Sequence record: OR525702.1
Length of the DNA stretch: 64,000 nucleotides
Direction: 5' to 3' (one strand)
Source of the DNA: Escherichia phage vB-Eco-KMB23
The notes under the pieces were generated by a model. It had not been told where the DNA came from, made no database searches, and saw nothing but the letters and a program-made list of their open reading frames with translations. A program made the translations under genes and the position numbers. Of this stretch, positions 39,779 through 40,875 are shown one piece after another. Numbering within the stretch: the stretch's first letter is position 1; each line of letters begins with the position of its first letter.

Positions 39779-40012
39779 TTATTTTTTACGAAAAATTGAT
39801 TTATTTTCTGCTGCCCATTTTTCAATAACTGCAGCAGGACCAGTAACAACAATTTTATCACCGTAATCTTCTGCGGCGAGTTGACCGAAATTATCTAATG
39901 CATCACGAAGAACTCCATGAGGCATTTCACCCATTTTATCTTTCTTGCCGGTGTAAATAAACTCAACTTTTACATCAGAAGATTCAGCGATAAACTCTTT
40001 GAAAGTTTTCAT
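39779..40012 (-). CDS. Internal-protein-like (capsid-targeting sequence) protein, about 78 aa
   Basis: Start placed at MKTFKEFIAESS (capsid-targeting consensus) rather than the track's upstream extension; own early promoter at about 40047-40076. Confidence 0.6.
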   Translation of the reverse strand: MKTFKEFIAESSDVKVEFIYTGKKDKMGEMPHGVLRDALDNFGQLAAEDYGDKIVVTGPAAVIEKWAAENKSIFRKK

Positions 40013-40046
40013 TTTGATTTCCATTTGGTTTTGTTTTGATAGAGTA

Positions 40047-40076
40047 ATAGTATCACTACTAAAACCCTGTGTAAAC
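40047..40076 (-). promoter_or_regulatory. T4-type early promoter upstream of internal-protein-like gene
   Basis: Minus strand ttcacaaagttGTTTACac ... TACTAT; upstream 30 nt duplicated at 40402-40431. Confidence 0.5.
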
Positions 40077-40088
40077 AACTTTGTGAAA

Positions 40089-40346
40089 TTATTTTAAATC
40101 TTCTAATCGTTTCTTCATCTTAGAACCATTTTTAGCAATTTCTCCTGCATCTGAGCATAATGCTAAAAGTGCTTTAACTTTAGTTTGGTCTCCTTTAAAA
40201 GATGAAGGATCGACTGCAGCAGCAAGTTCTTTAATACGAGAGAAAAGACGCTCAGCTTCAGCTAAAGCCATTCCAAGCTTTACTTCCATACCGTGGGAAG
40301 ATTCGGTGATAGTAGTTTTTGTAGCAAACTCTTTGAAAGTTTTCAT
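40089..40346 (-). CDS. Internal protein I-like (capsid-targeted, injected), 85 aa
   Basis: N-terminus MKTFKEFATKTTITES with I-x-E cleavage motif; adjacent to 57B as ipI is in T4; own early promoter. Confidence 0.65.
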   Translation of the reverse strand: MKTFKEFATKTTITESSHGMEVKLGMALAEAERLFSRIKELAAAVDPSSFKGDQTKVKALLALCSDAGEIAKNGSKMKKRLEDLK

Positions 40347-40377
40347 TTTTATTTTCCTAATTAATTTTGATGAGGTA

Positions 40378-40407
40378 ATAGTATCACTACCTCATCAGTA
40401 TGTAAAC
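40378..40407 (-). promoter_or_regulatory. T4-type early promoter upstream of ipI-like gene, -10 centred in inverted repeat
   Basis: GTTTAC -35; -10 core atagtatcac flanked by GATGAGGTA / TACCTCATC (40369-40377, 40388-40396). Confidence 0.5.
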
Positions 40408-40419
40408 AACTTTGTGAAA

Positions 40420-40875
40420 TTATTTTAAATCATCTGCCCAATCGAGTTTAAGAGGCTCTTTGTATTCACGATCTAATACGACCGGAATTTGTACATCACC
40501 GCTAAATGATAAGGGCCCAACATTATAAGACAATGTTATATGCGGTGTGTAATCATCAAAATCATGTGTAGCACCTAGTGCCCGCGCATACATGTGTCGA
40601 CAGCGCAGATATTCAGAATCTAGCACAAGTACAAGAGTCGATCCATCTTGTGTTTTCCATACTTCTAAATGTCCAGAAGAAGCTACTTCAAAACTTCCGC
40701 TTGATGGAACATACGGAACATTTACTCTTGAATAACATATGGTCGAATGAATTTTTTCTCTAGGAACTGGATTAGGAACACGTAAAGAGCGCTGGAGTTC
40801 TTCCAGCGCATCAAGTGTTAATTCTGAAAACTTAGCTGCTACATAAAGACCCGTTGAAAAGTCTTTAAATTCCAT
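40420..40875 (-). CDS. 57B: gp57B, 2H-phosphoesterase-fold protein
   Basis: 151 aa directly upstream of 57A; two H-x-[ST]-x motifs ([16 protein letters not shown]). Confidence 0.7.

Follow-up and report, generated by a model that had tools for sequence, protein, structure and literature searches.

The two small genes that lie between 57B and trna.4 in Escherichia phage vB-Eco-KMB23 were identified, with a probability of about 0.9, as the known internal head protein (IP) genes ip5 and ip6, which occupy the variable "IP1 locus" of T6/PST-type Tequatrovirus as unrelated cassettes. The window analyzed in this study is a stretch of 64,000 nucleotides (sequence record OR525702.1). Both genes have already been named and published, and the window contains no departure from published knowledge. 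Gene identity, the leader and cleavage-site motifs, the promoter and stem-loop matches, the dissimilarity of the mature parts, the purifying selection, and the cassette boundaries were all derived here.

Every gene in this part of the window is encoded on the minus strand, and the conserved genes 57B and trna.4 delimit a slot that contains the two small genes (Table 1). Downstream of trna.4, in transcription order, are trna.3, trna.2, and then the tRNA cluster. Over a 1.4-kb region, the identity to Yersinia phage PST, T6, Ge15, GiZh, and over 200 further Tequatrovirus genomes was 98-99.5%, and ipV/ipVI or Ip5/Ip6 is the existing annotation in several of these near-identical genomes. The names Ip5/Ip6 were found in the annotations of T6, PST, T2, RB51, and VR26. 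Two IP loci were considered as possible locations, 57B-trna.4 and e-denV/vs.8, and both genes were located in the former, which is exactly the slot where T4 carries ipI. An Rfam search of positions 39400-40900 returned no credible RNA family, and no copy of the locus was present in the complete E. coli genomes searched.

Table 1. Features of the 57B-trna.4 slot and its surroundings, by position in the window, in transcription order.
Feature	Position	Strand	Basis
gene 1	41842-41117	-	
57A	41117-40875	-	
57B, conserved left flank of slot	40420-40875	-	Pfam Acb1 (anti-CBASS), E 2.6e-60; gp57B in PST and T4 annotation
Regulatory cassette of ip5	40355..40431	-	Promoter scan; stem-loop dG -17.4; identity to T4 ipI upstream
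ip5 cassette: 57B tail, D-L-K-stop	40420-40431	-	
ip5 cassette: -35 GTTTAC(A)	40401-40407	-	
ip5 cassette: 13-bp stem-loop holding -10 TACTAT	40368-40397	-	
ip5 cassette: RBS AGGA		-	
ip5 (ipV), 85 aa, first small gene	40089-40346	-	phrog_3499; named Ip5/ipV in relatives
Regulatory cassette of ip6	40021..40100	-	Promoter scan; 85% over 71 nt to ip5 cassette, with 31-nt exact core
ip6 cassette: ip5 tail, D-L-K-stop	40089-40100	-	
ip6 cassette: -35 GTTTAC(A)		-	
ip6 cassette: weaker stem-loop around -10 TACTAT		-	
ip6 (ipVI), 77 aa, second small gene	39779-40012	-	phrog_8111; named Ip6/ipVI in relatives
Third promoter/stem-loop copy, before trna.4; right-hand boundary of ip6 cassette	39721..39778	-	16-nt exact core; ip6 indel relative to RB51 ends here
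trna.4, 61-aa hydrophobic protein, conserved right flank of slot	39535-39720	-	phrog_1692; tRNA.4 in PST, T4, and RB51 annotation

Membership in the internal-protein class was indicated by the N-termini. The preliminary description had recognized two adjacent genes beside 57B that begin with the capsid-targeting sequence (CTS) of T4 internal proteins and carry I-x-E sites, and this was confirmed. Both proteins start with MKTFKEF, which conforms to the leader pattern MKT(Y/F)(Q/K)EF, and both leaders end in a motif of the L/I-x-E type for gp21 (ITE15 in Ip5 and IAE10 in Ip6). A six-frame scan found the leader motif in only three ORFs of the 64-kb window, namely ip5, ip6, and the Ip4 gene at 30825-31298, and MKT..F was the only block conserved among the ten IPs compared. 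The 15-residue leader of Ip5 is of the IPI type, while the 10-residue leader of Ip6 is of the IPII/IPIII type. Purifying selection was observed on both genes (dN/dS 0.10-0.25), and ip5 and ip6 are therefore considered to be real genes.

Ip5 begins with MKTFKEFATKTTITE followed by SS, where MKTFKEFATKTTITE is the predicted leader. The predicted mature form comprises 70 amino acids, with a size of about 7.5 kDa and a computed pI of 9.2. The protein matched phrog_3499 (internal head protein in PHROGs) over its full length with an E-value of 1.2e-49, and it is 99% identical to the "Ip5" of T2/RB70, as named in the protein database sources (UniProt Q38378 is the "Ip5" of RB70); the gene is annotated as ipV in PST and as Ip5 in RB51. 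Identities of 99-100% were shared with T2 and with the 231 phage records that matched at 99% or more, and an identity of 96% was shared with the RB51-type allele, a single sequence that occurs in both RB51 and AndreasVesalius. In a tblastn search, mature Ip5 was present in 494 phage records, spanning at least the genera Tequatrovirus, Mosigvirus, and Gaprivervirus and occurring in either IP locus. The dN/dS of ip5 relative to RB51 was 0.10. The AF2 model is a two-helix hairpin (pLDDT 71), for which a Foldseek search of viral models returned nothing at E<=0.001.

The leader of T4 IPI aligned with that of Ip5 up to ITE in BLASTP, with the alignment covering Ip5 residues 1-22 only and placing ITE15/S of Ip5 opposite ITE19/A of T4 IPI. 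Since the aligned IPI* chain in PDB entry 2JUB starts at the residue directly after ITE, a gp21 cleavage of Ip5 after E15 is a prediction well grounded in homology. Two more L/I-x-E motifs, LAE (residues 28-30) and IKE (residues 38-40), were noted within the predicted first helix. If the prohead protease reached the motifs at E30 or E40, mature Ip5 would be shorter than 70 amino acids, and the mature size is therefore not certain.

Ip6 begins with MKTFKEFIAE followed by SS. The gp21-type site IAE10/S ends the predicted 10-residue leader, and cleavage after E10 is predicted by analogy to T4, which would leave a mature form of 67 amino acids, about 7.4 kDa, with a computed pI of 6.5. The protein matched phrog_8111 (internal virion protein in PHROGs) over its full length with an E-value of about 1e-50. 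It shares 95-100% identity with its counterparts in T6/PST-type phages and 73-95% with the "Ip6" of VR20 and others, and mature Ip6 was found in 230 phage records by tblastn. AlphaFold modelled Ip6 as a beta-alpha-beta domain of the ferredoxin-like kind (pLDDT 81), with which Foldseek retrieved only the Ip6 family among viral models. An exhaustive profile search with Ip6 yielded seven proteins at E<=0.001. Five of them look like family members or fragments, with a CTS-type leader in three of the four retrieved, and the other two are weak, multi-stretch matches in unrelated longer proteins. A 99-aa ORF that starts with TTG and extends up to 40078 was rejected as the reading of ip6; it is a mechanical extension, and the ATG at 40012 has both a ribosome-binding site (RBS) and the leader.

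The first 21 coding nucleotides of ip6 (39992-40012) are the same as those of ip5 (40326-40346) in both the window and PST, encoding MKTFKEF, while the Ip6 alleles of AndreasVesalius and T4_ev151 begin with MKTYQEF. Gene conversion acting locally between the two neighboring cassettes may account for the shared stretch.

No significant family was identified for Ip5 or Ip6 in Pfam, NCBIfam, or PADLOC, and phmmer searches of both against PDB sequences retrieved nothing, including 2JUB. The alignment to T4 IPI that the preliminary description had suggested held for the leaders (for Ip5 through ITE) and failed for the mature parts: homology to the mature domain IPI* was not detected, as BLASTP aligned the leader only (Ip5 1-22 and Ip6 1-14). 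Virion proteomics covering Ip5 or Ip6 was not found in the literature searched.

The regions upstream of the two genes are repeats of each other. The 30-nt repeat that had been described as promoter-proximal is real and exact, and it is one base longer, with 31 nt at 40070-40100 and 40401-40431. However, it is not purely promoter-proximal, since its 12 promoter-distal bases (GAT TTA AAA TAA) are coding and specify the terminal D-L-K-stop of the preceding gene (57B for the copy before ip5, and ip5 for the copy before ip6). The rest of the repeat runs through the -35 hexamer GTTTAC. The 31 nt are embedded in a longer repeat (71 nt, 85% identity), the RBS and the first codons are covered by another one (29 nt, 97% identity), and the spacing between the two tandem units is 331-334 bp.

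A promoter scan identified TTTACA-17-TACTAT, extended by TG, upstream of each gene (40406..40378 and 40075..40047). These T4-type matches overlap a stem-loop at both genes and agree with the earlier assignment of an early promoter to each gene. The 105 nt upstream of the ip5 ATG are 100% identical to the sequence upstream of T4 ipI. The -10/stem-loop core, GTAGTGATACTATTAC, recurs a third time at 39746-39761 in front of trna.4, which gives three exact matches in total, compared to an expectation of 0.64 with up to three mismatches allowed. In each copy the -10 box is in or at the hairpin loop. The folding energies of the ip5, ip6, and trna.4 copies were -17.4, -9.9, and -16.4 kcal/mol, with z-scores of -6.1, -2.6, and -4.5, respectively.

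No terminator-like site, consisting of a GC-rich stem and a subsequent T run, was found in 38700-41200. A TATAAATA late promoter is also absent immediately upstream of ip5 and ip6, and the route to sufficient protein when proheads assemble is accordingly presumed. The nearest coding-strand TATAAATA motif is inside gene 1, at 41473-41480 on the minus strand and 363 nt from the 3' end of the gene, and it occupies the same position in T4 (13006-13013 of the compared T4 sequence). Transcription from this motif late in infection could extend across 57A and 57B into the ip genes.

The content of the 57B-trna.4 slot varied among phages. The slot contains ipI in T4, ip5 in RB51, ip6 in T4_ev151, and ip5 together with ip6 in the window, PST, and AndreasVesalius. 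In T2 it holds ip5 and an unrelated 102-aa IP, and in VR26, a phage of another genus, it holds an orf, ip9, ip5, and ip6. The Ip5 homolog of RB69 is located in the other IP locus, beside gene e. An obligate Ip5-Ip6 pair was rejected on this distribution, as each gene was found without the other (RB51 and T4_ev151).

Comparison of the slots also revealed where the cassettes begin and end. Relative to RB51, ip6 constitutes a 298-bp indel with the GTGATACTATTAC core at either end, and between flanks that are identical, the place of ip5 is taken by ipI in T4. The 57B tail of ev151 runs straight into a promoter of the ip6 type, as would be expected from a loss of ip5 between the 31-nt direct repeats. 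An early promoter with a stem-loop was thus present at the borders of the variable ORFs in three copies, with the breakpoints of RB51 and ev151 inside. The indel boundaries coincide with the repeated promoter elements, a modular shuffling of the kind credited to Repoila et al. (1994), whose description of promoter/stem-loop elements at two variable IP loci is cited in PMC2839356. More than 30 IP variants are mentioned by Arbiol et al. (2010; PMC2839356), and five IP sequences were reported to differ between PST and T4 (Comeau et al., 2014; PMC4122927).

The preliminary description had explained the tandem arrangement by a cassette duplication and subsequent divergence of paralogs, which was contradicted by the comparison of the two genes. 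The similarity between Ip5 and Ip6 ends at codon 7, apart from the I-x-E-S-S motif (BLASTP). The mature proteins had a Smith-Waterman score of 19, compared to 23.2 +/- 4.3 after shuffling, and the DNA bodies of the genes had a score of 10, compared to 9.8 +/- 1.5. The predicted folds are also unlike, with a helical hairpin in Ip5 and a ferredoxin-like alpha/beta domain in Ip6, and the repetition is confined to the flanks. A tandem duplication in place of a single IP gene and its promoter, with the copies diverging into paralogs of new specificities, would account for the regular spacing of the units, for the exact 31-nt, 85% identical 71-nt, and 97% identical 29-nt repeats, and for two mature forms that both start with S-S, have a similar size, and share their first 21 coding nucleotides in this lineage. 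Nevertheless, a divergence that erased all similarity from the mature parts, at both the protein and the DNA level, would not have spared neutral flanks at 85-100% identity. The orthologs moreover occur without each other, with ip5 in RB51, T2, and (at the other locus) RB69 and ip6 in ev151, and the leaders belong to different types with different lengths. An origin by duplication in place is consequently regarded as very improbable.

Instead, ip5 and ip6 appear to be unrelated cassettes rather than diverged copies, and an exchange between shared flanks is indicated because the gene bodies have no similarity, the flanks are up to 100% identical, each gene occurs independently of the other, and the breakpoints are within the repeats. 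The repeated frame shared by the cassettes consists of the tail of the preceding gene, the promoter, the stem-loop, the RBS, and the first leader codons, and homologous recombination within this frame could insert, delete, and swap IP cassettes among phages.

Packaging, cleavage, injection, and an anti-defence role of the two proteins are carried over from work on T4. Transcription of each gene would start at a separate T4-type early promoter, the -10 of which is in the loop of a stem-loop, and may be supplemented late in infection by read-through from the late-promoter motif in gene 1. By analogy, the N-terminal capsid-targeting leader would bring each protein into the prohead's scaffolding core, and the gp21 prohead protease would remove the leader after I-x-E, at E15 in Ip5 and E10 in Ip6. 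The mature proteins, each of about 7.5 kDa, would then be packed with the DNA and later injected with it. The most likely role of the injected Ip5 and Ip6 would be to neutralise a first-line defence of the host.

In T4, each of Ip1, Ip2, and Ip3 blocks one distinct GmrSD type IV enzyme, without cross-protection (PMC12373910), and by this analogy the neutralised defence would be a modification-dependent type IV nuclease of the GmrSD kind. That divergent IPs are injected anti-restriction proteins of differing specificity, as the preliminary description suggested, has already been proposed (PMC3012670, PMC12373910), and the idea is a standard hypothesis already under experimental study. When ip4-10 were expressed in cells and assayed against further GmrSD variants, no reproducible inhibition was observed (Silas 2025; PMC12373910, Supplementary Fig. 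9), and the case for Ip5 and Ip6 as GmrSD inhibitors is therefore one of analogy. It is conceivable, although rather doubtful, that the target of Ip5 and/or Ip6 is some host defence distinct from GmrSD-type restriction, given that the proteins failed against the GmrSD panel assayed to date, that their predicted folds are unlike the published description of IPI*, and that Ip5 is unusually widespread and conserved; if true, the injected IPs would extend beyond anti-type-IV restriction.

A further explanation dispenses with a specific host target altogether and treats Ip5 and Ip6 as mainly structural or charge-balancing fillers of the head, with their variability reflecting relaxed constraint. 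In a T4 head, the DNA surrounds approximately 1000 IP molecules, the lysines of which contact DNA phosphates (PMC3012670). The basic pI of mature Ip5 is consistent with such a role, and so is the failure of ip4-10 to show reproducible anti-GmrSD activity; mature Ip6, however, is near neutral. The low dN/dS values of both genes and the near-complete conservation of Ip5 across 231 records argue for a specific, constrained function, compact folded domains were predicted for both proteins, and all three T4 IPs proved to be specific inhibitors of host defences. A pure head-filling role thus seems improbable, and an injected anti-defence function is the preferred prediction for both proteins.

Several other observations were made in the neighborhood of the slot. 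The conserved flank 57B matches the Acb1 anti-CBASS phosphodiesterase of Pfam, while most database records name it "RNA ligase" or "hypothetical". On this match, an intracellular anti-defence gene would therefore adjoin the cassettes of the putatively injected IPs. The tRNA cluster at 36518-38739 comprises 11 tRNAs, of which those for Lys, His, Asn, Tyr, and Met have no annotation in the T4 cluster. Between tRNA-Ser and tRNA-Gly, it is interrupted by a gene for a 216-aa homing endonuclease of the GIY-YIG type (37845-38495, minus strand), the placement of which corresponds to the RB51 arrangement and not to the position of segB in T4.

The second IP locus was represented in the window by the Ip4 gene, which is located between vs.8 and e. 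This third CTS-bearing gene, on the minus strand, encodes 157 amino acids, begins with MKTYQEFITE followed by AA, and corresponds to ipIV of PST. In tblastn searches of the 64-kb window, T4 denV, ipIII, and ipI had no counterpart, and T4 ipII had only a weak match of 35% to the 157-aa Ip4 gene. The match to T4 vs.8 is split in two within 30141-30795 (minus strand), with residues of about 1-32 at 30795-30700 and the rest at 30689-30141, and the ORF list of this region contains a 197-aa ORF that starts at 30731. The split may stem from a frameshift, from an indel, or from a different start site.

The pairing of ip5 with ip6 in the window is the common T6/PST one and adds little that is new, and the locus is a textbook case of T4-like phages exchanging small injected proteins that set host range. 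The cassette boundaries, with 31-nt direct repeats around ip5 and -10/stem-loop cores around ip6, could be useful for clean swaps or deletions of IP cassettes.

Among known systems, IPI of T4, with its mature form IPI*, is the injected inhibitor of the GmrSD of E. coli CT596. The locus resembles it in the slot, in the 100% identical upstream promoter region, in the leader type of Ip5 (MKTFKEF...TITE), and in a small basic mature protein of about 70-76 amino acids. The PeSL cassettes of RB49/phi1-type phages are similar in that small variable genes are bordered by a repeated composite of early promoter and stem-loop, in which the indels between related phages end. In contrast, the IP elements of T-even phages have been described as analogs rather than homologs of PeSL cassettes, with T4 early promoters and AT-rich stems of variable size (Arbiol 2010, PMC2839356). 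Likewise, the PeSL combination of a sigma-70-like promoter, a GC-rich terminator stem, and homology to RB49/phi1 was not found at the locus, where the stems are AT-rich; the homology part follows the statement of those authors. The closest correspondence is to the Ip5/Ip6 of T6, T2, RB70, RB51, PST, and VR26 (Repoila et al., 1994, EMBO J 13:4181), with the same genes, slot, order, and flanks. No substantial difference from these was observed, and the Ip6 leader of the window starts with MKTFKEF as in PST, whereas other Ip6 alleles start with MKTYQEF.
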